This document shows, piece by piece, positions 6,676-50,782 of a stretch of 64,000 bases of DNA. The first letter of the stretch is position 1. The number at the start of each line of letters is the position of its first letter. Source of the stretch: a phage; sequence record PV874203.1. The stretch is one strand, 5' to 3'. The notes under the pieces are model-generated. The model saw only the letters and a program-made list of their open reading frames with translations. It was not told where the DNA came from and did not search any database. Both the position numbers and the translations under genes were made by a program.

Positions 6676-8212
<1,537 letters not shown>

Positions 8213-8460
8213 AATGCATCTCTTTATAAACAGTTTCCGTGTTCTTCTTCCAGTTAGATAAACTGGTAAGAACTCTCTGAGCAACTTCATCAGCTGCTCT
8301 ATTTCTTTCAATCTCTAACTCTTGTTGATGCTTTTCTTTATCCAGATTGTTACTGTCTGTTCTGTACTCATTAAACTTCATACCACCAAAGAATACAAGA
8401 GCTGAGAAAACGATAAACCCTAAGTTATCACTTAACGTGTTTTGCATGTTGTCTCCAACG

Positions 8461-8484
8461 AAAAAAAAGCCACCCGAAGGTGGC
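8461..8484 (-). terminator. Rho-independent terminator
   Basis: Perfect hairpin GCCACC-CGAA-GGTGGC followed by an 8-T run on the minus strand, downstream of the SSB-like gene. Confidence 0.6.
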
Positions 8485-8506
8485 TAAGCTATAACAAGGA
8501 GAGTTA

Positions 8507-9253
8507 TTAGAATGGGCTATCGTTGTCGTCTTCGTAAGTAGAAGCAGGCTCTTTATCAATCGTAGGGATTGAAGGAGTAGCTTCTTTCTGTTCTGTTTCA
8601 GAAGCACGAGTAATTTCACGACCAGCCAGAGGCATGTTCTTAGCATCATTAGCTTGAGTAAGCAGGTTGCGCTGGAACGGGAACATCAATTGATAGGATG
8701 CTACGTTCTCATCGGTTTCAGCATATGGTTCGAAGAATACCAGAGGACTACGAGCTTCACCAACTGCTGCACGATATTTGGTTGGGATTGGAGAAATGGT
8801 TTTGATGGAGTTTTTAACTTCACCGGCTTTGTTAGTGTAAGAGTTAACCAGAATGTTAACAGGCTGGCCTAACAGAACATCCTTGAACCAAGACAGATCA
8901 CCTTTCAGTGCTTGAATACTTGGGTCAATCATCTTGCAGAGATCAAGAATACCAGAGTTCTTAGCTCGTGGGTTTACATCATAGCTCTTGAACTGGCAAG
9001 CCGGACGTGGTTCTAATGCCTTACCATCGGAATCTTTACCAGTAGCATCAACACCAATCAGCTCGAAAGCCAAATCCATACGGAAAGCTGGATTCTTAGG
9101 AGTTACTGCTTTGGTCTTCGGGTCAATCCAAGGGTCTCGATTGTGAACACCCAAACCTACTACACGAACGATGCGTGCTTCGTACTCACCATCAGGGATG
9201 ATGTCGTAGTTGGATTTACGGGAAGAAGTTGCGATAGTTGGAATCATAGACAT
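8507..9253 (-). CDS. Putative ssDNA-binding protein (T7 gp2.5-like)
   Basis: Acidic C-terminal tail ending in Phe (YEDDNDSPF), as in SSB tails; sits in the replication neighbourhood. Fold not verified. Confidence 0.45.
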   Translation of the reverse strand: MSMIPTIATSSRKSNYDIIPDGEYEARIVRVVGLGVHNRDPWIDPKTKAVTPKNPAFRMDLAFELIGVDATGKDSDGKALEPRPACQFKSYDVNPRAKNSGILDLCKMIDPSIQALKGDLSWFKDVLLGQPVNILVNSYTNKAGEVKNSIKTISPIPTKYRAAVGEARSPLVFFEPYAETDENVASYQLMFPFQRNLLTQANDAKNMPLAGREITRASETEQKEATPSIPTIDKEPASTYEDDNDSPF

Positions 9254-9313
9254 ATTTTAATTTCCTTATTTAATTTTGAAAGATTGTTGCTCTCTTTGAG
9301 CGGTTATGTATAA

Positions 9314-9322
9314 TATACATTA
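9314..9322 (-). promoter_or_regulatory. TAATGTATA motif (putative phage promoter element) upstream of the SSB-like gene
   Basis: Minus-strand TTATAATGTATATTA about 60 nt upstream of the start at 9253; same 9-mer recurs in gene orientation at 16338-16346 and 60218-60226. Confidence 0.35.
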
Positions 9323-9687
9323 TAACTTTTGTAAGATAAGTATCATTTTATTGGTAGTAGATACTCACTAATGGTAATGTATATAAGGTAGAGTTAGAGA
9401 ATAACTCTTGCACGGGACTGACGACGATAAGGCGCAGACGACAATCTCTCATAAGTTTGTAAGAAATTGAGAGACTACCGGAAGGGCAGGAGCCACCTGC
9501 GAGATAAAAATAGAGAATTAAGGAATCCTTGATTTAGGTTGTAGGGACTCCTAGGGACTTTGATTCTCTATTTAAAAGAATATTAATTACTTACTACCTA
9601 AATAATTAACTAGCTTACTTAAACCAAATTCAAGAATAATAGATAAAAAGATTATTCCTAAGAAAGCTAAGAAGTAAAGGATATAAG

Positions 9688-36921: not shown

Positions 36922-37164
36922 CTATGGAGTTAAGATAATTTCAGCCTTACTAAACTTCTCACCAACTTCAAGAGTATCAGCAACAGGACGGGGCACACCT
37001 GTACCCAAACAAACAGCCCTTCGATACCCTCCAGTCACAGGCATCATCAAATAGATGACCTGATTATCATCTTCTTTTAAAGTAAAGATATCAGCGATCG
37101 ATAGATCTTTAACAAAGAGTTTCTTTTCTTCTTCATGATGAACTTTGATATGTATTGTGCTCAT
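36922..37164 (-). CDS. Small protein, member of a paralogous family
   Basis: Shares the D(L/V)xxG(D/S)(V/I)F ... NL(x)TG pattern with at least 7 other small ORFs. Confidence 0.5.
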   Translation of the reverse strand: MSTIHIKVHHEEEKKLFVKDLSIADIFTLKEDDNQVIYLMMPVTGGYRRAVCLGTGVPRPVADTLEVGEKFSKAEIILTP

Positions 37165-37166
37165 AC

Positions 37167-37412
37167 CTACTCCTGAACAACTGACATACGAATCACTTCA
37201 ACAGGTGCATCACTTTTCATAACACCCAGTACGCCAGTAAGAAGATTAACGGTCGTAATCCAACCTTCTTCGACAGAGATTTTGTTGGATACATTATTAA
37301 CACGGATGTAATACTGAGGGGATGCTGTTCCTCTCTGAACTACGAAAGGGTTTCCGGGAATAATTGTAGCCAGTGAAACAGTGTTATCTTTAATCTTTGG
37401 GATAATCTTCAT
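37167..37412 (-). CDS. Small protein, probable member of the same paralogous family
   Basis: Similar size and LATIIPGNPF...LLTGV pattern. Confidence 0.45.
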   Translation of the reverse strand: MKIIPKIKDNTVSLATIIPGNPFVVQRGTASPQYYIRVNNVSNKISVEEGWITTVNLLTGVLGVMKSDAPVEVIRMSVVQE

Positions 37413-37420
37413 ATTGATTC

Positions 37421-37744
37421 CTATTTAAGTTTTAGGCTAATATTAAGGTGCATACATGCCCTGTTCTGTACAGCAGCATAACTTCTACCGAGCATGTCAG
37501 CCATTCTCTGAATAGACATGAACCCAGCATTACGGATAAGGAACTGGTCTTCTTCTTTAGACCACTTGACTCGGATTACAGCTCTAGAAATACCGAACTT
37601 AGTGCAAGCTGTATTAACTGCATTCTCCGTTACATTCATAATCTGAGCAACTTCTTGAACCGAGTACTCTTTGATTAGTCTCCGAAGATTTTCAATCTGC
37701 ATCGGAGTCCATATAGTTCTTCGAGCTTTCATTTTACCACCCAT
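37421..37744 (-). CDS. Putative DNA-binding protein with two tandem HTH-like repeats
   Basis: Two approx 50-aa repeats each with W...E...L...S..E.A..M........R. Confidence 0.45.
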   Translation of the reverse strand: MGGKMKARRTIWTPMQIENLRRLIKEYSVQEVAQIMNVTENAVNTACTKFGISRAVIRVKWSKEEDQFLIRNAGFMSIQRMADMLGRSYAAVQNRACMHLNISLKLK

Positions 37745-37955
37745 GTCGACTTTTAACTAACACACCATCAATTATCAGATAATGTAAATGTCTTATCATA
37801 TCTGAAGACAGATCTCCATGAGCGCTATTCCACTGAAGGAAGTTCATATCCTTCCAATCTGTGTAGTGCTTTTTGGCTTCTTCCTCTATCTGACTAAGAG
37901 TTACCCTTCTGAAAGGATATGGACTATACTTAATAAGTGTTTCACATTTTGTCAT
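37734..37955 (-). CDS. Hypothetical protein
   Basis: 73-aa ORF. Confidence 0.4.
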   Translation of the reverse strand: MTKCETLIKYSPYPFRRVTLSQIEEEAKKHYTDWKDMNFLQWNSAHGDLSSDMIRHLHYLIIDGVLVKSRHGW

Positions 37956-38245
37956 ATATCCTCCAATTAAATGTTTATGTAAGACTTGCTTAGATAAAGA
38001 TTCAATAAAATAGGGGGAGGGGACGAATCCTCCCTTATCCTATTAATTAATATTGCATGTAAGATCTAACAATCGGTTGCCTTTGTAGGAATAAGCGTTA
38101 TGCCAATCCAGCACTAAACTCCCGCCCCCTTAGTGGGCTGGGTTTATAAAGGGTAACGCCCTTATGGGCTAGTTACATGAATGTTAGTTTGATAGGGGAT
38201 CTGAAGTCCTATCTCAAAGGACTCTCGTAAGAATCCTTCACGATA

Positions 38246-38503
38246 TTACTTAAAGATGAAATGTATAACTGCATCATATGCTTTAGACAGAAGCCAACCT
38301 ATCGGATAACAGACTCCTGCCAGTATTGAGATGGGCCATAACATAATTAAGATCACAACCATCATCTCATCAGGTTCAGAGCTGGTAGACCCTGTTGTAA
38401 TGACCCCTTTTAGTAGACCTTTCTTGTATAGCAGTTTCAGCACTAAAACAGAAAGGAATACTCCAATAAAGTAAACTGAGATAAAAATATCAAGTAAACC
38501 CAT
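38246..38503 (-). CDS. Hypothetical small membrane protein (holin-like topology, unproven)
   Basis: 85 aa with 2-3 hydrophobic helices. Confidence 0.4.
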   Translation of the reverse strand: MGLLDIFISVYFIGVFLSVLVLKLLYKKGLLKGVITTGSTSSEPDEMMVVILIMLWPISILAGVCYPIGWLLSKAYDAVIHFIFK

Positions 38504-38654
38504 TTAATCACCTATTACTTATTCAACTTTCGTCTGCTATCTCGCCAAGCCAACCAAGTGTAGGTTTTCAGCTCTTCAAAGTCTTCTGGAGAGAATAGAT
38601 ATTCTTTGAAGGTATTTCCAAACCACTTTAAAAATTCTTCAGTCATAAAACCTC

Positions 38655-38828
38655 TTAACAAGACTGGTCACATGGCTGATCACCACATGTTTTACAAATC
38701 ACTGGTGAATAACTACAGGAAGGATATACTGACACACCGTCAAACGTCTCACACCCACAGTCAGGGCATGTACCATTGGATTCCATGTCATAATCATCAT
38801 CCACTTCACCACCACCATAACAGCTCAT
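38655..38828 (-). CDS. Hypothetical small Cys-rich protein (57 aa)
   Basis: Hand-translated ORF MSCYGGGEVDDDY...CPDCGCETF...CKTCGDQPCDQSC with AAGGAG upstream. Confidence 0.35.
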   Translation of the reverse strand: MSCYGGGEVDDDYDMESNGTCPDCGCETFDGVSVYPSCSYSPVICKTCGDQPCDQSC

Positions 38829-38837
38829 ATGAACTCC

Positions 38838-39059
38838 TTAGTAAACTAAACCTATAGCCTTTGCATCAGGCTGAGGGACTACTTTTGCATTAGGGCGATA
38901 ACCATCCACTGAACCATTCCAAAGGTTGACACAGGTGATATACCCATCGTTCAAGTAGTCTGTTTTAATCCAGAAGTGTTTATCGTGACCAAAGATACTT
39001 CCTTTTGGCAGTGTGGACAATTCAACAGTTTTAAGGGATTGTTTAGAATCTAATTTCAT
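38838..39059 (-). CDS. Small protein, member of paralogous family
   Basis: LSTLPKGSIFGHDKHFWIKTDYLNDGYITCVNLWNGSV fits the family pattern. Confidence 0.5.
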   Translation of the reverse strand: MKLDSKQSLKTVELSTLPKGSIFGHDKHFWIKTDYLNDGYITCVNLWNGSVDGYRPNAKVVPQPDAKAIGLVY

Positions 39060-39068
39060 ATAAGTTCC

Positions 39069-39266
39069 TTAATACACCAAGCCATGTAAGAGAAACACTC
39101 TCTTAGTTAACTCTGCTTTAGCTCTGTAATAAGCCTTAGAACCTAACAGGCGGCGTTTAACAAAGAACTTAATGTCATTGCTAACATCTTGTATTAAACG
39201 CTCCTGTACAGCTTCTGAGGAGCTATTAATTGAATCAATTAACACCTTTGTAGATGTATAATTCAT
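39069..39266 (-). CDS. Hypothetical protein
   Basis: 65-aa ORF. Confidence 0.35.
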   Translation of the reverse strand: MNYTSTKVLIDSINSSSEAVQERLIQDVSNDIKFFVKRRLLGSKAYYRAKAELTKRVFLLHGLVY

Positions 39267-39267
39267 A

Positions 39268-39567
39268 TCACCACTCCTTACCGGTTGTTGTTACAGAGCC
39301 ACCACACCACAACGCTGTATCAATCACAACATTATCTGGCGTAGACTTCTCTTCGTTGATAGAAGGGTTAGCATTGGAGCAGGTTGCTCCGTTCCAGCGC
39401 ATATCGATTTCACCAGAAGGAACCTTCTCACCTTTATGCCAGCGAGAAACACAAACACCTTCCACTGCTACTGCACACCATCCATCAGGACGGCTCTGTA
39501 CGCAGCCTGTAAGGGCCACACAGACAAGGAAGATACAGATTAAGGATATTACACCACCCCAACTCAT
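39268..39567 (-). CDS. Predicted lipoprotein (possible superinfection-exclusion / receptor-masking protein)
   Basis: Signal peptide with lipobox LTGC, then Cys-rich mature domain. Function inferred by analogy to phage lipoproteins such as T5 Llp. Confidence 0.5.
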   Translation of the reverse strand: MSWGGVISLICIFLVCVALTGCVQSRPDGWCAVAVEGVCVSRWHKGEKVPSGEIDMRWNGATCSNANPSINEEKSTPDNVVIDTALWCGGSVTTTGKEW

Positions 39568-39586
39568 AACTATCTCCTACGTTGAT

Positions 39587-39662
39587 TGGTGCACCCTACA
39601 GGACTCGAACCTGTAACCAACGACTTAGAAGGTCGCTGCTCTGTCCATTGAGCTAAGGGTGC
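39587..39662 (-). tRNA. tRNA-Arg (anticodon UCU), 76 nt with encoded CCA
   Basis: Hand-folded cloverleaf: acceptor GCACCCT/AGGGTGC, D-arm GCTC/GAGC, anticodon stem GCGAC/GTCGT with loop CTTCTAA, T-arm ACAGG/CCTGT with loop TTCGAGT, 3' ACCA. Confidence 0.8.
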
Positions 39663-39671
39663 TATATTTAT

Positions 39672-39980
39672 TTATAAGGAGAAAGACTTCTTACAATCCT
39701 TCTCTTCAAAAGTGTAGTAGCCTGTTGTATCAGGGAAGTAGGCATACTTTGTTTCTTTGCCATCAATAGCCATGACACGATTACCAGAAGTTGTTTCTAC
39801 AAACAGAAGCCCATCTCTTACCATACCATGAGATTCTTTGATACCAGTTAAGCTATGCTCTTTAAGAGTGCATTGCTGAACACTCTGATACTTAACTCCA
39901 ATCTCTGCACTATTAACAGAGATGATACCAATGGTTGTCATTAGTAGTAAGGTTGAGATGATAAAATGCTTTTGTTTCAC
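39672..39980 (-). CDS. Hypothetical secreted protein
   Basis: N-terminal signal-peptide-like segment (MKQKHFIISTLLLMTTIGIISVNSA). Confidence 0.45.
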   Translation of the reverse strand: MKQKHFIISTLLLMTTIGIISVNSAEIGVKYQSVQQCTLKEHSLTGIKESHGMVRDGLLFVETTSGNRVMAIDGKETKYAYFPDTTGYYTFEEKDCKKSFSL

Positions 39981-39998
39981 ATTAACCTCTGGATTTAT

Positions 39999-40208
39999 TT
40001 AACTGAAGATACGCAAGGCCACATCGTGATAGATATGACCGGGGACTTTGTGCTGTTCTATTTTCAAACAGCGTTTACAGACACGAGATACACGAGATTC
40101 TTTTCTCTCGACCGGAGTGTCTTTAGCGTGAGTAATATGTAAGTTTTCAGTGATCACCCACTCATGTTTACATCCAGAATCTTCGGGCTTTTTCTTACGA
40201 AAGAACAT
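39999..40208 (-). CDS. Hypothetical Cys-containing protein
   Basis: 69-aa ORF with CKHEW ... CKRC pattern. Confidence 0.4.
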   Translation of the reverse strand: MFFRKKKPEDSGCKHEWVITENLHITHAKDTPVERKESRVSRVCKRCLKIEQHKVPGHIYHDVALRIFS

Positions 40209-40217
40209 AACACCCCC

Positions 40218-40379
40218 TTAGATTACATCACGATGACTAACATCACCACACACCTTACACTGAATAACGTAACGTGTGCCCTTGTCATTATTCCCATCTG
40301 AATCTGTATAGACCAGAGGGCGAGTATTAATAATCTTCCAATCATGACAATGAAAGACACGCTTTAGCCACTTGAACAT
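40218..40379 (-). CDS. Hypothetical zinc-ribbon protein
   Basis: Track ORF trimmed to internal Met (MFKWLKRVFHCHDW...CKVCGD) to avoid overlap. Confidence 0.35.
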   Translation of the reverse strand: MFKWLKRVFHCHDWKIINTRPLVYTDSDGNNDKGTRYVIQCKVCGDVSHRDVI

Positions 40380-40386
40380 ATTAACC

Positions 40387-40638
40387 TCAAGCACAAGCAG
40401 GGAGAGTGATGATTTTATGCTTACCATCAAACTCTCCAAATAAACCTAAGAATGTAGGACTGTAAGTGCCAGTACAAACAAACTCATCAAACAGTGCGTT
40501 ATAGCTAGGCTTAATCTTCCAAGCCCATACATAACCCATCTTGTCAATTGCAATGTAACGAGTGTTCAGAGGAACAGTCATCATCACACCATCAACTTCA
40601 ATCACTTTAGTTATTGGTGCAGCTTGGAAGTTTTTCAT
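40387..40638 (-). CDS. Hypothetical protein
   Basis: 83-aa ORF. Confidence 0.4.
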   Translation of the reverse strand: MKNFQAAPITKVIEVDGVMMTVPLNTRYIAIDKMGYVWAWKIKPSYNALFDEFVCTGTYSPTFLGLFGEFDGKHKIITLPACA

Positions 40639-40865
40639 TACATTTCCTCTAACTTAAGAGTTGCTTTATATTCTTTAACCGGAGCGTCTTCAGGGAAAGA
40701 AAGTCTTTGAGAGGGTTGGGGTAATCGTACAGAAAACCCGCCACCAATCTTCATGTAGAAAGATTCTTGACTGGCAAGTTCTGTGTTGAATGTGAAAATA
40801 GAACCAATGCTCAAGTCTCGGAAAGTCTTTTGCTTTGGTTTAGTCGAGTCTAAAACGATATTCAT
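40638..40865 (-). CDS. Small protein, probable member of paralogous family
   Basis: FRDLSIGSIFTF pattern. Confidence 0.45.
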   Translation of the reverse strand: MNIVLDSTKPKQKTFRDLSIGSIFTFNTELASQESFYMKIGGGFSVRLPQPSQRLSFPEDAPVKEYKATLKLEEM

Positions 40866-41038
40866 ACTTTACCTTTGATAAAAATGTCATTACCACAGAC
40901 ACAGCATGAACGAACAACAGTAGCGCCACGCTGAACGATACGAACCTCTTCTTTAACCAGATTAACACGAGCACCACAGCAAGGAGAGTTAACATAAGAG
41001 TAACCAGCTTGCGTATTCTTGATTGTTTGCTTAGACAT
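40862..41038 (-). CDS. Hypothetical zinc-ribbon protein (58 aa)
   Basis: Hand-translated ORF with CC...CCVCG; start overlaps the upstream stop (ATGTCTAA). Confidence 0.35.
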   Translation of the reverse strand: MSKQTIKNTQAGYSYVNSPCCGARVNLVKEEVRIVQRGATVVRSCCVCGNDIFIKGKV

Positions 41039-41489
41039 TTGATTCGAGATCTCTTAGTTGTTCAGCCAATTGTTCGCACTCATTGATGCAGAACTCTTCT
41101 GTTCTTGGAACCCCATTAGGGTTGAACCGTGTCTTATCACACGCATGGGCACAATCAAACCCGATTGTATTTAAACCACCCATCTCTTCAAGAGTGTCTT
41201 GCCATGTTACACCACCGTGAACTCCAACATACCAAACAACCGCTTCCTCTCCGTTATATCCGGTGAAGTTTTTATGCTTTAAGCTGTCTGGTAGCTCTAC
41301 ATATCCACAAAGATGGGAGTCGTTCATGTGAATAATCACAGCACGAAGCCCTGATTTAGTTACCCAACCTTTAACCATGCGTCTCATATAAGCACCTCTT
41401 GTTAGTTTAAGTAAGAGTTGTCCCTTAATTAAAACAACAAAGGCCACCCGATTGGGCAGCCTTTTATCTATTAACTGTTGTATGTCCAA
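41031..41489 (-). CDS. Hypothetical protein
   Basis: 152-aa ORF; true start may be an internal Met. Confidence 0.45.
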   Translation of the reverse strand: MDIQQLIDKRLPNRVAFVVLIKGQLLLKLTRGAYMRRMVKGWVTKSGLRAVIIHMNDSHLCGYVELPDSLKHKNFTGYNGEEAVVWYVGVHGGVTWQDTLEEMGGLNTIGFDCAHACDKTRFNPNGVPRTEEFCINECEQLAEQLRDLESNV

Positions 41490-41969
41490 TTACCTTGCTT
41501 GTTACGGATAGCTGACATTGCATGAAGCCAGAAGCCTTCCAGTTTCAGAGCACCGTTAGCTACTGCATCCATACGTTCAGGGCGGTTCATAAGTTTGGTT
41601 GACACTTTCATACCTATATCTCTTTGTTAGTGGAGGCATTATTGCCAGTTGATATAAGGGATAGCCCTAGTCAGGAGACTAATTCTGACCGCGTACTCAT
41701 TGCCGACCTTCTCTGCCTAAGAGTTCAGGTTCTAGAGCTATCTCTTATTCCAACTGGTGAAGACTCCCTACCCCTAGGAAGTCTCCTGAATCCCAAACCG
41801 ATACGTACCCCTACATATCAGAAAGTCTTTCGAAAATTAACAGGTTTTAGTCTAACACCGGATGTTCGAGCAAGCTCTCCCTAGCGGTGTGGCATATGCC
41901 TGAGTTAATAAGTTAATGAGGAACACCCTCACATAGCCCTCTGATAGACACAAGGGCTATAAGTCGGTG

Positions 41970-42188
41970 TTACTTTTGAGTCAAACACAGATCAGGACGG
42001 GGCATAACAGTGGTTGATAGACCAAAGACTTCAACATAACCAGTGCCCAGATTGGCAGCCTTACGTAAACCGTCAGGGGTTTTATCTTCTAGCATCAGCC
42101 AGAAACGTTTATCGTAAGAGAAAACATCACCACCCTTAACGTCTTCTGCATTTGCATATTTAGGATAATCAACTACTTTAATTTCCAT
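41970..42188 (-). CDS. Small protein, member of paralogous family
   Basis: AEDVKGGDVFSYDKRFW...NLGTGYV. Confidence 0.5.
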   Translation of the reverse strand: MEIKVVDYPKYANAEDVKGGDVFSYDKRFWLMLEDKTPDGLRKAANLGTGYVEVFGLSTTVMPRPDLCLTQK

Positions 42189-42198
42189 TTACTTACCT

Positions 42199-42417
42199 TT
42201 ACTGATAGATGGAGAGGTGGATAAGTTTATTCACATGAGCGAAGTTAGGTAGGATTTGCATCTCATTGTTGAAGATATTAAAACAACGAACCCCACCCTC
42301 TACAGCATAAGCAGATTTCTGAAACAGACTACCTCCCCACACAAATACATCATGTGTTTCAAGAGATCGTAACTGAACAGCCTCGTCAACAACCTTCTTT
42401 TCAATGTTCATACTCAC
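42199..42417 (-). CDS. Small hypothetical protein in the paralog array
   Basis: 72-aa ORF inside the array; family membership weak. Confidence 0.4.
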   Translation of the reverse strand: MSMNIEKKVVDEAVQLRSLETHDVFVWGGSLFQKSAYAVEGGVRCFNIFNNEMQILPNFAHVNKLIHLSIYQ

Positions 42418-42668
42418 CCTTGATTAGTAATCACTACATCGTGAAACATGATAACACGGGTTGTAGAGTGTATCTTAATAACTTGCTTACTTCTCAGATT
42501 AAGAACAACGCAACCTCCATCAGAAGGCTTAGTCTCTTCTATCTGAGAAGTAAATAACTGAACAACCATGTAGAAATCTGCACGGGTATCCCTGATTTGG
42601 AATACATCTCCAAGTTTAAGATCACTGACATAAAGAGTTGGTTCATTTACCTTCAAATTAATCTTCAT
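42414..42668 (-). CDS. Small protein, member of paralogous family
   Basis: VSDLKLGDVFQIRD...VLNLRSKQV. Confidence 0.5.
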   Translation of the reverse strand: MKINLKVNEPTLYVSDLKLGDVFQIRDTRADFYMVVQLFTSQIEETKPSDGGCVVLNLRSKQVIKIHSTTRVIMFHDVVITNQG

Positions 42669-42894
42669 CCTTAGCCCCTATGTTAGTTATGTGGAGATCA
42701 CTACGTACTTGGCAGACTTCATCCCGTTTAAAAGGCATGAGCTTTCCAGTTACCACATCAACACAGTTTACATAGTTATCTGCGTATAGTGTGTCGGTTC
42801 TAATATAAAGAGAGTCTTTACGCTCAAATAGAACCCCCGGCTTCATATTATTTAATCGAAGCATTGTACGATCGGATTTAATATTAACTTTCAC
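42658..42894 (-). CDS. Small protein, member of paralogous family
   Basis: LNNMKPGVLFERKD...VDVVTGKL. Confidence 0.5.
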   Translation of the reverse strand: MKVNIKSDRTMLRLNNMKPGVLFERKDSLYIRTDTLYADNYVNCVDVVTGKLMPFKRDEVCQVRSDLHITNIGAKDED

Positions 42895-42896
42895 TG

Positions 42897-43154
42897 TTAA
42901 TCCGCCTTATTCGTGAGTCGAGCGTTAACTTTCTTAACAACTTCATGAGTGAAACCATCAGAAATCACACCAGTTGAAAGGTTAATATATTTTCTCTGAT
43001 CTCCTGATCTGTTATAAGCACTTGAGGACATATAATAATCACTCAGGTTCAGAGGGAACTGGAACACATCACCTGATTCTAAATCCCCAAGAGTCAAAAC
43101 CTTTGGGGCGTTGTTCATATCAATTATCACTGTTAATCTCCTGCTGCTTAGCAA
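42897..43154 (-). CDS. Small protein, member of paralogous family
   Basis: LGDLESGDVFQF...INLSTGVI. Confidence 0.5.
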   Translation of the reverse strand: MLSSRRLTVIIDMNNAPKVLTLGDLESGDVFQFPLNLSDYYMSSSAYNRSGDQRKYINLSTGVISDGFTHEVVKKVNARLTNKAD

Positions 43155-43615: not shown

Positions 43616-44005
43616 TTATTCCCTAGAGCTATTATCGAACACTAAATCACCACAATACATAGGATTGGCATACCATTTTGGCACCCCTTCGCTCTTACTC
43701 TGAAAGTAAGTCCCACTATACAGCGGAACATAATTCTTCTTAAGGGCACGTTTAGCCAGCCGCTCGCTTTCTCTAATGGCTTGCTTAGTCATCGGATTTT
43801 TATCACGAATCAGCTTTACATAACGTTTATAAGGTTTCTCCTGTTTTAATAGTACCGGAATCCACTCAAACTGGTTCTTTTGTCTTATCACCTGTTCAGC
43901 GGTCAGTTTTCGTTGAGCCATTCTATTTATCACGGTATCCGCAACCATAGCTTTACATGCGGTTGGCTGATTCCCTGCCTCATAATAAATAGTCAATGTC
44001 AACAT
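43616..44005 (-). CDS. Putative cell wall hydrolase (SleB/Hydrolase_2-like); candidate endolysin
   Basis: YYEAGNQ...AMVADTVINRM...NQFEW pattern resembles the Hydrolase_2 family. Confidence 0.5.
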   Translation of the reverse strand: MLTLTIYYEAGNQPTACKAMVADTVINRMAQRKLTAEQVIRQKNQFEWIPVLLKQEKPYKRYVKLIRDKNPMTKQAIRESERLAKRALKKNYVPLYSGTYFQSKSEGVPKWYANPMYCGDLVFDNSSRE

Positions 44006-44140: not shown

Positions 44141-44163
44141 CGCAAAAAGCCGCTCAAAGGCGG
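44141..44163 (-). terminator. Rho-independent terminator (tandem with previous)
   Basis: Hairpin GCCGC-CTTTGA-GCGGC followed by a 5-T run on the minus strand. Confidence 0.5.
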
Positions 44164-44245
44164 CTATGCGGAAGCTTCAAATGGGGAGAGGGCACGACGC
44201 GACAGAAAGAGCGTCATAGTACTAAAAGAGGGGGATATATTCCTA

Positions 44246-45516: not shown

Positions 45517-46425
45517 TTATGCTGCCTGACGTGCCGCCATAATCTCAGCCGCTTTACGCAATACTTCCTCTTCTTCTTCTTTCGCAGCTTGTTCGGTACG
45601 GGTAGCAACCGTTGAAGAGATACGACCGCGCAGTCCTTCTAACTTCTCCTGCATAGCTGCGATAGTCTTTTCCATTTCATCAGCGTATGAATCGAGTGAT
45701 TCCAGTTCCTTGCTTGATGCGTTCATCAGATAATCGTCAGAGATCGCTACCGTTGAAGCCGTGACTTTCTTGATGAGTGAATCAAAGGACTTTTTAACCT
45801 TGCCCACTTCTTCACTCAGTGCGATCGTGTTATCGCTGGTAGCGCCGTTGCGCTCATCAGCCAGTAATTTGGCTTCAATACGGATTGCATTCAAGCGTTC
45901 AACCAAAGCGTAAATATCTTGGTTAAAGTCTTCTTTATTCTTTGCCGGAATTTGCAGGTGTGCCGCTACGTTGTCATTGCAACCTTTGAAGAAGTTAGGG
46001 TTATCGACTTCAATTTCACGACCTAAGGCAAAGTTTTCGAAAGCATTTGACCAGCGAGCGCGGTTTTGTTCCATTTTGGCCTTAATTTGCGCCTCTTTCG
46101 CATCTTCTTTCGCTTTCGCTTCACCTTCCAGATTAATCCACTTCTTACGGCCATTCGCCGCATCAGTGTTAAACTTGATAGGAGTTAAGAAAGTGATTGC
46201 AGTGGCGATCACGTCCATATCGCGGAAGCGTTCAGTTAACAGAAAGTCAACCGCCGTCTGCAATACTTCTAACTTTTTACCGTTACTGCGGAAGTGCTGC
46301 AAGTGCCCTAACAGAAAATTAGAAACATCTTGCTTGATCGCCGCGTTATTGCTACGAATGTTGTTAGCCAGTGCGTTAAAACCAGATTCTTTTACCAGAT
46401 TAAAAACTTTAGCCATGATATTCAC
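45517..46425 (-). CDS. Hypothetical protein (helical, Ala/Lys/Glu-rich C-terminus)
   Basis: 302-aa ORF; first gene downstream of the 1.7-kb ORF-poor region. Confidence 0.5.
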   Translation of the reverse strand: MNIMAKVFNLVKESGFNALANNIRSNNAAIKQDVSNFLLGHLQHFRSNGKKLEVLQTAVDFLLTERFRDMDVIATAITFLTPIKFNTDAANGRKKWINLEGEAKAKEDAKEAQIKAKMEQNRARWSNAFENFALGREIEVDNPNFFKGCNDNVAAHLQIPAKNKEDFNQDIYALVERLNAIRIEAKLLADERNGATSDNTIALSEEVGKVKKSFDSLIKKVTASTVAISDDYLMNASSKELESLDSYADEMEKTIAAMQEKLEGLRGRISSTVATRTEQAAKEEEEEVLRKAAEIMAARQAA

Positions 46426-47242
46426 CTTTCAATTGTAAGGGCACTATGCCCCGCTCTCTATGAGCTTGTTTAAGTCACTATTAACTTAACTATAACCACT
46501 CGTTGTTAAGTAGTTATAGGTAAGCGGGGCGGTCTTATCAGGAGTTAACCTTGCCGCCCCCTTATCCGTGATGTTTCATCTGGTACGCTTTAATTTTCCG
46601 CTATAAATAAAGCCGGATTGCGTAGCGATGATCAATCATCACAATAAGGCTATGCGTCCAACTCAATTTAATTACATTGCTGTAACCGTTGGCAATATCG
46701 TCTACTTTGCTTTCGCTCCCGCCTATCCTTTGTGCCAACTCCTAACCGCTAACCATCGCCCACTACGGGAGGTTATTGCGGAAAGAGATCATTGACCGCC
46801 TAATATTCCGGCGTTTTATATCTTTCGGCGGGTTTACTACATAACCCGACTATGTACTTCCGTCATAAGACGAATCTCAAGCCGTTCACATCGTAAACGT
46901 TCGCATTAAACCTTATTGTTAAATAGCAATTTGCCACTTTTTAACCACTCCCCGCCGCCCTCAATTGGGCGTTAATTCGTCGGACTTGTCTGCCCTGATT
47001 AGTTTCTTTCACTGTAGCACCGTGTTAGCGATGGCCGCCGCTACCCTTAACCGTGGGCGATTAGCTTAAACCTTTGCGTGTACTCAATGAATCCGCTTAT
47101 CAGTGGCGACTTTTCCAGTTAAGGGATTGTAAAACTGTTTACCCTGATGTTTTAGGGAGTTTTACGCCGTTTTATCTGGTATGCTGTCCGATGGTTATTA
47201 TCTTCCAGCATATTTAACCGATATATGGGAATGTTTAAATTG

Positions 47243-47868
47243 TTAAAGAGCGGTAAATCTGTCAGCGTGCTTTCTCACGCTACGCAACTGTTAGCCGTTG
47301 TTACGCTTTTCACTTAAGCGGTGATTTGCTTCAGTGATGCTCATTATGGACCATGATGTTTTTGCTGTCAACCGCTTTTTTAATCTTTTTCGTCGTTCCC
47401 GCTATTGGGAGGATATATCAACCCGCTTTATTGGGTTGAAGATTAAGCGATGAGGCTTAACCCATGATTCATATTGTTAAAGAGCGTTTAGCCTTTTATA
47501 GTGTCTGCTAATCACTGCATCATTAAAGGCTTACTTATTCATTAACGGGGCGCCTAATCCCGAACTACCCGCTGCACTATGTGCCACCTTTCCCGCGATA
47601 CGTTGATTTAGGAACTAGTTAACGTTGTTTTGTTAACTTGTGGTTAGTATGAACTACCTTAACCACGTTTGCAACCCTTTTTTATCATCTTCTTTTATTC
47701 TTTTCCCTTATCTCGCTTGAATCTATGCGAAAGGGCAAGATGATAAGTTTTTAAAGAGCGGGATGCTTTAAGTCATCGCTGACTATGCTCACTATATATC
47801 AGGCTATTTTCGGTGTCAATACTCTTTTTAAGAATATTTTCACTTTCTAGCCTGATTTTTAAAGAGCG
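47243..47868 (+). repeat. Four dispersed copies of TTAAAGAGCG(G) in an ORF-poor 1.7-kb region
   Basis: Copies at 47243, 47477, 47751 and 47859, in two subtypes (ATTGTTAAAGAGCG x2, TTTTTAAAGAGCGGG x2). Confidence 0.5.
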
Positions 47869-48204
47869 GGGCAATTTCTTGCCTTGTATGTTTTTCATCG
47901 TACCCGATGAATTGAAGTATACATTAATCAGTGAGGGATGCAATAGGGTAAAGCAAACTATTTTAAACTTTTTCACTATAGGGAAGATAAAGGAACGGGT
48001 GCGCGTGATACATCATAGAAAACGGCTTGTAAAGCGATATTTAGCGGCCTAAAACGCACTATAGCGAGCTAAAAGGGAGTAAGGTATACAATCACCTTAG
48101 AAACGATAAGAGCCTCACTAGGAGGCTTATAGGAAGGATTTAGAGCATTAGATAGATTATGACCATAGGCATGACTACGGCACAATATAGGAGAAAGATT
48201 AAGC

Positions 48205-50617: not shown

Positions 50618-50782
50618 ATGTGGAAAATTAAGTTAATCATTAAGCAATTCAAATGTGATCATGAGTACTATCGGATACGCAAAGCTTACGGGGATGAAAG
50701 AGTTCACACCCTTTATAAGTCCACTTGGAGATGTAGTAAATGTGGTAAGCTTAAGCACAGCACATGGATGGATAGGCCTTAA
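50618..50782 (+). CDS. Hypothetical small zinc-ribbon protein (54 aa)
   Basis: Hand-translated ORF with CDHEYYR ... CSKCG; first ORF of the plus-strand block. Confidence 0.3.
   Translation: MWKIKLIIKQFKCDHEYYRIRKAYGDERVHTLYKSTWRCSKCGKLKHSTWMDRP

Follow-up and report, generated by a model that had tools for sequence, protein, structure and literature searches.

Background

In phiEco32-like phages the early genes lie at one end of the genome and are transcribed leftward by the host sigma70 RNA polymerase (RNAP); nearly all of them are function-less in the annotation and are assumed to serve host takeover (PMC8948821; PMC4281155; PMC9965538). The subfamily that includes these phages, Gordonclarkvirinae, has been reported to be unusually resistant to restriction-modification and to almost every defence system tested, and no inhibitor is known (PMC11990801). 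Here we describe an array of nine small genes from the corresponding region, between positions 43154 and 36922 of a 64,000-nucleotide (nt) stretch of phage DNA (sequence record PV874203.1; "the window" hereafter denotes this whole stretch). Its sequence identifies the window as a Kuravirus, i.e. a phiEco32-like podophage and a coliphage: the best match to the 6.3-kb array region is Escherichia phage NJ01 (90.7% identity over 84% of the query; 103 phage records matched), which is classified in the genus Kuravirus of Gordonclarkvirinae, the phiEco32-like prolate podophages. According to the profile comparisons reported below, the products of all nine open reading frames (ORFs), the divergent 42199 included, form one paralogous family, with a similarity far above that expected by chance.

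A known relative of the array proteins is gp21 of bacteriophage N4, a stand-alone protein of ~74 amino acids (aa) that belongs to the same family and has the same start-to-end architecture as the window copies; N4 has one copy in the 22 kb scanned, compared with nine in the window. Anti-CRISPR and other anti-defence loci typically comprise small, early, clustered genes with a patchy distribution among relatives and a helix-turn-helix (HTH) gene, and the array resembles them in its small clustered early proteins, its patchiness among relatives and the presence of an HTH gene within the cluster. However, known anti-defence loci usually hold unrelated proteins, whereas the arrays described here hold up to eleven paralogues of one fold. 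An analogy restricted to the mode of action is provided by the Bcl-2-like and ankyrin families of poxviruses, which are multigene host-range and immune-evasion families. They are similar in the use of one small fold, in an identity of ~20-25% between paralogues, in the location towards the genome end and in the variable copy number, but differ in the fold, the host and the virus realm.

The genes themselves are not new: about a hundred genomes already contain them, annotated as hypothetical proteins, and they are distributed among a number of PHROGs. This work adds their unification into one superfamily, a predicted fold, the connection to N4 gp21 and the finding that expansion into arrays has occurred repeatedly.

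Nine members of one paralogous family

For most pairs of the nine proteins the BLASTP similarity is weak, with 38838/41970 (35 bits) and 38838/42658 (30 bits) at the top (here and below the genes are named after their lower coordinate), and the identity between paralogues within the array has eroded to ~20-25%. Profile methods nonetheless separate the nine proteins from all other sequences. In a leave-one-out analysis, in which a hidden Markov model (HMM) of the other eight proteins was compared with 406 window ORFs and 2,000 shuffled sequences, the omitted protein ranked first in 9/9 cases, the thinnest margins being those of 42199 (10.7 bits vs 10.4 bits for the best shuffle) and 40638 (11.2 vs 5.6 bits). 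Comparison with 38,880 PHROG profiles revealed a dense network, in which the nine proteins cross-match each other's families over the full length (PHROGs 6570, 7431, 9955, 10911, 12612, 16423 and 33163, plus 7832 and 8365). An independent HMM was built from 109 non-kuravirus relatives, each <40% identical to any kuravirus member; against it the nine ORFs scored 28.0-61.0 bits (E-values 4e-8 to 2e-18), compared with maxima of 10.0 bits among 4,500 shuffles and 4.1 bits among the other window ORFs. All nine match the profile end to end as stand-alone proteins of ~66-87 aa, and no tenth copy of the family was found in the 64-kb window. The first-pass annotation of this DNA, which had proposed at least eight paralogous small ORFs and listed 42199 as a possible further one, is thereby borne out and extended to nine members, with 42199 confirmed by its first rank in the leave-one-out search and by 30.8 bits against the independent HMM.

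The opposite view would be that composition or chance accounts for the resemblance, or that the ORFs are not genes. It could draw on the marginal BLASTP scores of most pairs and on the lack of similarity between the copies at the DNA level, but it is at odds with the separation of the nine proteins, by leave-one-out and independent profiles, from all other ORFs and thousands of shuffles, with the conservation of their orthologues (dN/dS 0.09-0.22, see below), and with the confident structure models and the 828 related clusters described in the following sections. Similarity that is merely compositional, the outcome that would have spoken against a family, is therefore not what was found, and we regard the probability of this view as negligible.

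All nine ORFs were found at the expected coordinates on the minus strand. Reading leftward, the first member is 42897 (42897..43130, ~77 aa), with PHROG 9955 as its own family and 53.4 bits against the non-kuravirus HMM, to which all bit scores in this paragraph refer. It is followed by 42658 (42658..42894, 78 aa, PHROG 16423, 58.0 bits), which overlaps the next gene by 11 nt, by 42414 (42414..42668, 84 aa, PHROG 9955, 46.4 bits), 42199 (42199..42411, ~70 aa, PHROG 33163, 30.8 bits) and 41970 (41970..42188, 72 aa, PHROG 6570, 46.8 bits), and, further away, by 40638 (40638..40865, 75 aa, PHROG 10911, 31.7 bits). The orthologue of phi32_104, 38838 (38838..39059, 73 aa, PHROG 6570, 61.0 bits), encodes the product nearest of the nine to the family consensus. 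The last two members are 37167 (37167..37412, 81 aa, 47.4 bits), which is the orthologue of phi32_96 and belongs to PHROG 7431, as does N4 gp21, and 36922 (36922..37164, 80 aa, PHROG 12612, 28.0 bits), the orthologue of phi32_95.

Two gene starts were revised. Translation of 42897 probably begins at GTG 43130 rather than at the start of the longest ORF, which extends to 43154, since a good AGGAG sequence is found upstream and the resulting 77 aa agree with the orthologue NJ01_135. For 42199, ATG 42411 (70 aa) is probably the correct start rather than GTG 42417 of the longest ORF, as the database orthologues are also 70 aa long. With these corrections the proteins comprise 70-84 aa, so that the small and similar sizes noted in the first-pass annotation hold, but not its range of 75-85 aa. 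Shine-Dalgarno-like sequences precede every copy, and several copies overlap a neighbour by 4-11 nt. The net charge of the window copies is about -2 to +2, and the sequences of the nine proteins contain no signal peptide or transmembrane segment. No similarity was detected between the array copies at the nucleotide level, which means that the duplications are old; recent duplication is ruled out on the same grounds.

The family consensus reads MKIxxKxxxxxVxFxDLxxGDVFxxxxxxYMKTxxxxxxxxxxAVNLxTGxLxxFxxDxxVxPVxAELVI. Its core pattern, G-(D/S/N)-x-F ... Y-(M/I)-(K/R)-T ... (V/I)-N-L-x-(T/N)-G ... V, is present in the family but degenerate in single window copies. The D(L/V)xxG(D/S)(V/I)F...NLxTG signature by which the array had originally been recognized is complete in only two or three copies (41970, 42897) and partial or degenerate in the rest: the product of 42199 exhibits the most degenerate motif of the nine, with H replacing G, and that of 40638 is devoid of the NLxTG half. 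Judging from these comparisons, the family is defined by its profile and not by this motif. The nearly invariant columns (M1, G20, F23, L46, G49, V60) are occupied by glycines and hydrophobic residues, which we read as turn and core positions; G20, F23, L46, G49 and V60 are shared by the window copies as a set. The family alignment contains no invariant polar or catalytic residue.

Relatives outside the window

When 1.84 billion cluster representatives were searched exhaustively with HMMER (E-value threshold 1e-3), 828 clusters were assigned to the family. Among the 150 matches listed, nearly all are stand-alone proteins of 66-87 aa that are matched from residue 1 to the end, and about a dozen are tandem two-domain forms. 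A giant match of 1,611 aa (P0258), which could have represented a cellular fusion, was rejected as a false positive: it consists of four identical 12-bit partial matches, which lie inside repeated concanavalin-like (3-keto-disaccharide hydrolase) domains. The distant members match the same PHROGs much more strongly than the window copies match each other, and they thus bridge the subfamilies. Their median isoelectric point (pI) is 5.2. Where the genomic context of metagenomic members could be recovered, it corresponded either to phage-like contigs with tandem pairs or to further kuraviruses.

When the nine-sequence profile was used in a word-indexed search of proteins, the matches were limited to close orthologues from kuraviruses; the exhaustive search of representatives was required for the superfamily to become visible. 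Single-sequence tblastn searches with distant members as queries reported, depending on the query, only kuraviruses, kuraviruses together with Vibrio phage RYC, only the query itself, or nothing. N4 gp21 (YP_950499), a member of PHROG 7431, matches the family profile with 59.8 bits (E-value 1.3e-18). The unrelated Vibrio phage RYC (AP014858, 158 kb) has an array of 4.5 kb with at least nine copies, located at one end of its genome (9519-14003 of the stretch scanned, corresponding to record positions of about 1.4-6 kb).

We found no Pfam match for the window copies or the distant members at an E-value threshold of 1, no NCBIfam or PDB sequence match for the family, and no PADLOC model match for the nine proteins and N4 gp21 at a threshold of 0.1; neither was there any DNA match to the array in 5,426 complete E. 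coli genomes. The literature searched contained no description of N4 gp21 or of the paralogy within the family. The PHROGs that comprise the family (7431, 6570, 7832, 8365, 9955, 10911, 12612, 16423, 33163 and 34455) are all labelled 'unknown function'. The first impression that these proteins match nothing recognizable is therefore accurate as far as Pfam, NCBIfam, PADLOC and PDB sequences are concerned, but not with respect to a large family that includes N4 gp21. The family amounts to ~8% of the genes in a 77-kb phage, has no Pfam or NCBIfam entry and is distributed over at least ten PHROGs without functional annotation, although its members occur in the model phage N4, in the abundant coliphages of Gordonclarkvirinae, in a large Vibrio phage and in hundreds of clusters of metagenomic origin. 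Naming it as one superfamily with a defined fold would unite some 40 kb of 'hypothetical proteins' in every hundred genomes as one object for tests.

Predicted fold and variable positions

AlphaFold models of the products of 42414 (pLDDT confidence score 81.5) and 38838 (pLDDT 84.9) contain five strands each, with a long disordered loop at residues 43-48 in the former. On the basis of these models, the predicted fold of the family is a five-stranded SH3-like β-barrel. Fold searches with both models returned only SH3-like folds, of which domain I of EF-P/eIF5A, KOW and Tudor domains are the nearest solved ones. Any likeness is at the level of the fold only (best Foldseek E-value 0.034, none below or equal to 1e-3).

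A similarity to EF-P would raise the possibility that the proteins derive, as stand-alone domains, from the SH3-like barrel of translation proteins (EF-P/eIF5A domain I, uL2, KOW); by binding RNA, the ribosome or the enzymes that modify EF-P, they would redirect the translation of the host at an early stage of infection. We consider this unlikely. Apart from the poor Foldseek score, an hhalign comparison of the 120-sequence family profile with EF-P domain I gave a probability of 1.9%, and no match to Pfam EFP_N, KOW or eIF-5a was reported even at E-values up to 1, so that homology to EF-P is rejected at the sequence level. In contrast to the N-terminal KOW-like domain of EF-P/eIF5A, the family members lack the (K/R)PGKG loop (the equivalent loop varies in length), are not followed by OB domains, as the proteins end after the barrel, and are neutral to acidic instead of basic. 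Their charge of -2 to +2, and the acidic median pI of the distant members, are unlike those of typical RNA binders, and the presence of at least nine paralogues is hard to square with one ribosomal site.

The Tudor-like appearance of the barrel would fit mimics of RNAP-interacting domains (CarD, Mfd, the C-terminus of UvrD/PcrA) that dock on RNAP beta and aid the switch from host to phage transcription. However, the fold scores are no better than those of dozens of unrelated SH3-like domains, and no sequence match to CarD/TRCF or to the C-terminal domains of UvrD/PcrA was found. RNAP takeover in the phiEco32 group has already been attributed to gp36 and gp79 (PMC8948821), and a copy number of 3-11 combined with turnover speaks against a single conserved target, which makes this explanation very unlikely. 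What these two proposals, as well as that of superinfection exclusion discussed below, have in their favour is a generic resemblance of fold; the charge, the variable loops, the copy number or the missing profile similarity contradict them.

Comparison of orthologues within the large orthologue sets revealed four hot spots of variation. The first two are the N-terminal tail and the residues just after the conserved phenylalanine, which form strand 1 and the following turn. The third runs from the end of strand 2 through the hairpin turn into the beginning of strand 3 (according to the 38838 model, with the mapping inferred from the family alignment), and the fourth is the stretch after the TG turn.

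Turnover and selection among related phages

Grouping of the family members from the window and seven other genomes (eight genomes altogether) yielded 14 orthologue groups. Closely related phages have gained, lost and replaced copies: three were counted in LAMP, nine in the window, nine in phiEco32, ten in NJ01 and eleven in EP335, the range across Gordonclarkvirinae being 3 to 11 copies per genome. EP335 belongs to the sister genus Nieuwekanaalvirus, and all of its eleven copies are located in the early region, with 0 in the first 40 kb. Three groups are universal (8/8 genomes), namely the orthologues of phi32_95, 96 and 104, i.e. 36922, 37167 and 38838; the last of these is also present in a metagenomic kuravirus contig (L012) and hence in 9/9 kuravirus sequences compared. 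The groups of 41970, 42414 and 42658 are missing only from LAMP, a 68-kb genome that lacks the whole phi32_113-115 block, and LAMP, phiEco32 and XT18 have no member of the 42897 group. The other groups are sporadic, with 42199 having an orthologue only in NJ01 among the genomes compared, and the slot of 40638 is occupied by a non-orthologous member (the phi32_109 group) in phiEco32, NJ01 and XT18.

Gene-wide Nei-Gojobori ratios of nonsynonymous to synonymous substitution rates (dN/dS) could be calculated for the six family genes with enough orthologues. The values of 0.09-0.22 correspond to purifying selection and indicate that these are maintained coding genes. At the same time, 36922, 37167, 42414 and 42658 reach dN values of 0.11-0.24 and dS values of 0.63-1.16 and are thus the most diverged genes of the region, compared with 0.003-0.09 and 0.08-0.66, respectively, for the neighbouring genes tested. 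The combination of high dN with high dS in these alignments points to old allelic lineages that would have been exchanged by recombination.

Position in the early gene cluster

Both the GC skew and the orientation of the ORFs delineate one long minus-strand block that extends from ~50 kb down to ~4 kb. Within it, the array (43154 down to 36922) is syntenic with phiEco32 genes 115 to 95, including phi32_95, 96, 104 and 113-115. An almost ORF-free spacer of ~1.8 kb (46400-48200) contains two minus-strand sites with 11/12 matches to the sigma70 consensus (47819-47791 and 47371-47343), and a further minus-strand site with a 10/12 match is found at 49834-49807. By analogy to phiEco32 and SU10, the two sites in the spacer are the probable main early promoters that feed the cluster; the promoter-like sites agree with the published layout of three promoters in the spacer and one at the start of the cluster. 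The array lies 4-11 kb downstream of the predicted sigma70 promoters. Its leftward cluster position, these predicted promoters and the synteny with phiEco32 place the nine genes, by analogy to the relatives, in the early (host-takeover) class.

Upstream of the array, the minus strand contains an intrinsic-terminator-like hairpin at 44080-44061 (8-bp stem with 7 GC pairs and a T6 tail) and a second, weaker one at 44148-44165. If they function as predicted, the two hairpins mean that transcription reads through or is antiterminated, or that the array is transcribed as a unit of its own. The promoter element published for the phiEco32 gp36-holoenzyme, TAATGTATA, occurs in exact copies in the window at 9314, 9375, 16338, 47918 and 60218. 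With one mismatch allowed, the number of copies of TAATGTATA in the window is not above that in shuffled controls, and the array is not marked by this element.

Proposed role

We propose, with a probability of roughly 0.5, that the nine early paralogues constitute a diversified set of non-enzymatic binders for host takeover or anti-defence. A scaffold for binding, without enzymatic activity, diversified against many targets and made directly after infection, is suggested by several features taken together: the small stable barrel, the restriction of conservation to glycines and hydrophobic residues, the freedom with which surface and loops vary, the early expression deduced by analogy, the many paralogues, their rapid gain, loss and replacement, and the occurrence of arrays in two unrelated lineages. 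According to this model, the barrel would provide a stable scaffold without enzymatic activity, whose surface and loops are free to diverge; the copies would be made in the first minutes of infection from early promoters recognized by the host RNAP; each paralogue would bind a different macromolecule of the host or of its defence systems; and the set would be reshuffled among related phages by gain, loss and allelic replacement. Family membership, early-region location, turnover, purifying selection and breadth are observed here, and the fold class is established at the level of models, whereas a binding function, a diversity of targets and a role against defence systems are our inference.

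Several observations weigh against the binder set. The conserved N-terminal MKI and C-terminal AxLxI segments are modelled with low confidence and are not explained by it; they may pair together, mediate dimerization or fold on binding. The SH3-like fold predicted by the models is generic and says little about the ligand, and variable loops and high divergence are also expected of any weakly constrained small protein. A strong terminator-like hairpin (44080-44061) separates the array from the predicted early promoters, so that its presumed time of expression is that of relatives. The dN/dS values are below 1 and, being gene-wide ratios, do not demonstrate positive selection. For the three universal members, an arms race is no better a fit than a conserved housekeeping role, and the literature searched yielded no functional data on any member, not even on N4 gp21.

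The suggestion that such expanded small-protein families act in host takeover or anti-defence had been made from the sequence of the array at the outset. The early cluster, the variation in copy number and the resistance of these phages agree with it, but no match to a characterized takeover or anti-defence protein was obtained: comparisons covering inhibitors with Pfam, NCBIfam or PDB entries (e.g. Tad2/DUF2829, Ocr, ArdA, anti-CRISPR) were negative. The broad defence resistance of Gordonclarkvirinae provides circumstantial support for the takeover or anti-defence idea. A narrower version, in which each paralogue neutralizes a different defence or takeover target and the arrays of 3-11 copies are the reason why Gordonclarkvirinae plate almost unhindered in the face of restriction-modification and most of the other defence systems, is put forward only tentatively, as we consider it doubtful. 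Under that version, this phage-wide evolvable binder scaffold would also have been put to use in N4 gp21 and in the RYC array, and the proteins would represent a new, widespread class of anti-defence factors built on one fold.

The family appears to us the most obvious candidate set for the takeover or disarming of the host by these phages. If the copies bind host or defence proteins, they would help to explain the broad defence resistance of phages that are used therapeutically, and would supply natural binders built on a compact scaffold; otherwise, the result would still be a clean gain in annotation, biologically ordinary. LAMP, with three copies, and EP335, with eleven, are natural deletion and expansion variants for experiments.

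Other genes in and around the array

The array is interleaved with a lipoprotein gene, a tRNA gene and genes for secreted and zinc-ribbon proteins, as described in the first-pass annotation. These comprise a Pfam Phage_lipoprotein member (39268-39567), tRNA-Arg(TCT) (39587-39662), a signal-peptide-like protein (39672-39980) and four small zinc-ribbon-like proteins, with CxxC or CxH motifs in pairs, encoded on the minus strand (38655-38828, 39999-40208, 40218-40439 and 40862-41038). Another small protein of the zinc-ribbon-like type is encoded on the plus strand at 50618-50782. A second paralogous family composed of the CxxC proteins could not be established (best BLASTP E-value 0.02-0.03 in a six-sequence database).

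The member 38838 adjoins genes for a secreted protein, a Phage_lipoprotein and a membrane protein (38246-39980). In N4, the gene order is gp18 (superinfection exclusion), gp19 (membrane), gp20 (lipoprotein) and then gp21 (7668-9379 of the scanned N4 stretch). The two arrangements may be a coincidence or a conserved neighbourhood.

The proximity of family members to membrane, lipoprotein or exclusion-type genes in both Kuravirus and N4, as well as the variability and the presumed early expression of the family, would be compatible with a role in competition between phages, in which the copies block the injection or development of other phages (superinfection exclusion). The proteins themselves, however, lack a signal peptide or transmembrane segment, and the likeness of the neighbourhoods is perhaps coincidental, so that we regard such a role as quite unlikely.

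An HTH protein is encoded on the minus strand at 37421..37744 (Sigma70_r4_2, E-value 3.6e-7; 'transcriptional regulator, D5-like' in relatives). Its gene is located directly upstream of the universal members 37167 and 36922 and recalls the regulators found inside anti-defence operons. Beyond the other end of the array, the minus-strand gene at 43616-44005 encodes a protein of 129 aa whose counterpart in phage XT18 is annotated as a 'cell wall hydrolase', the early region being an unusual location for such an enzyme; its homologue on the metagenomic contig L012 matches Pfam Hydrolase_2 (SleB-like).

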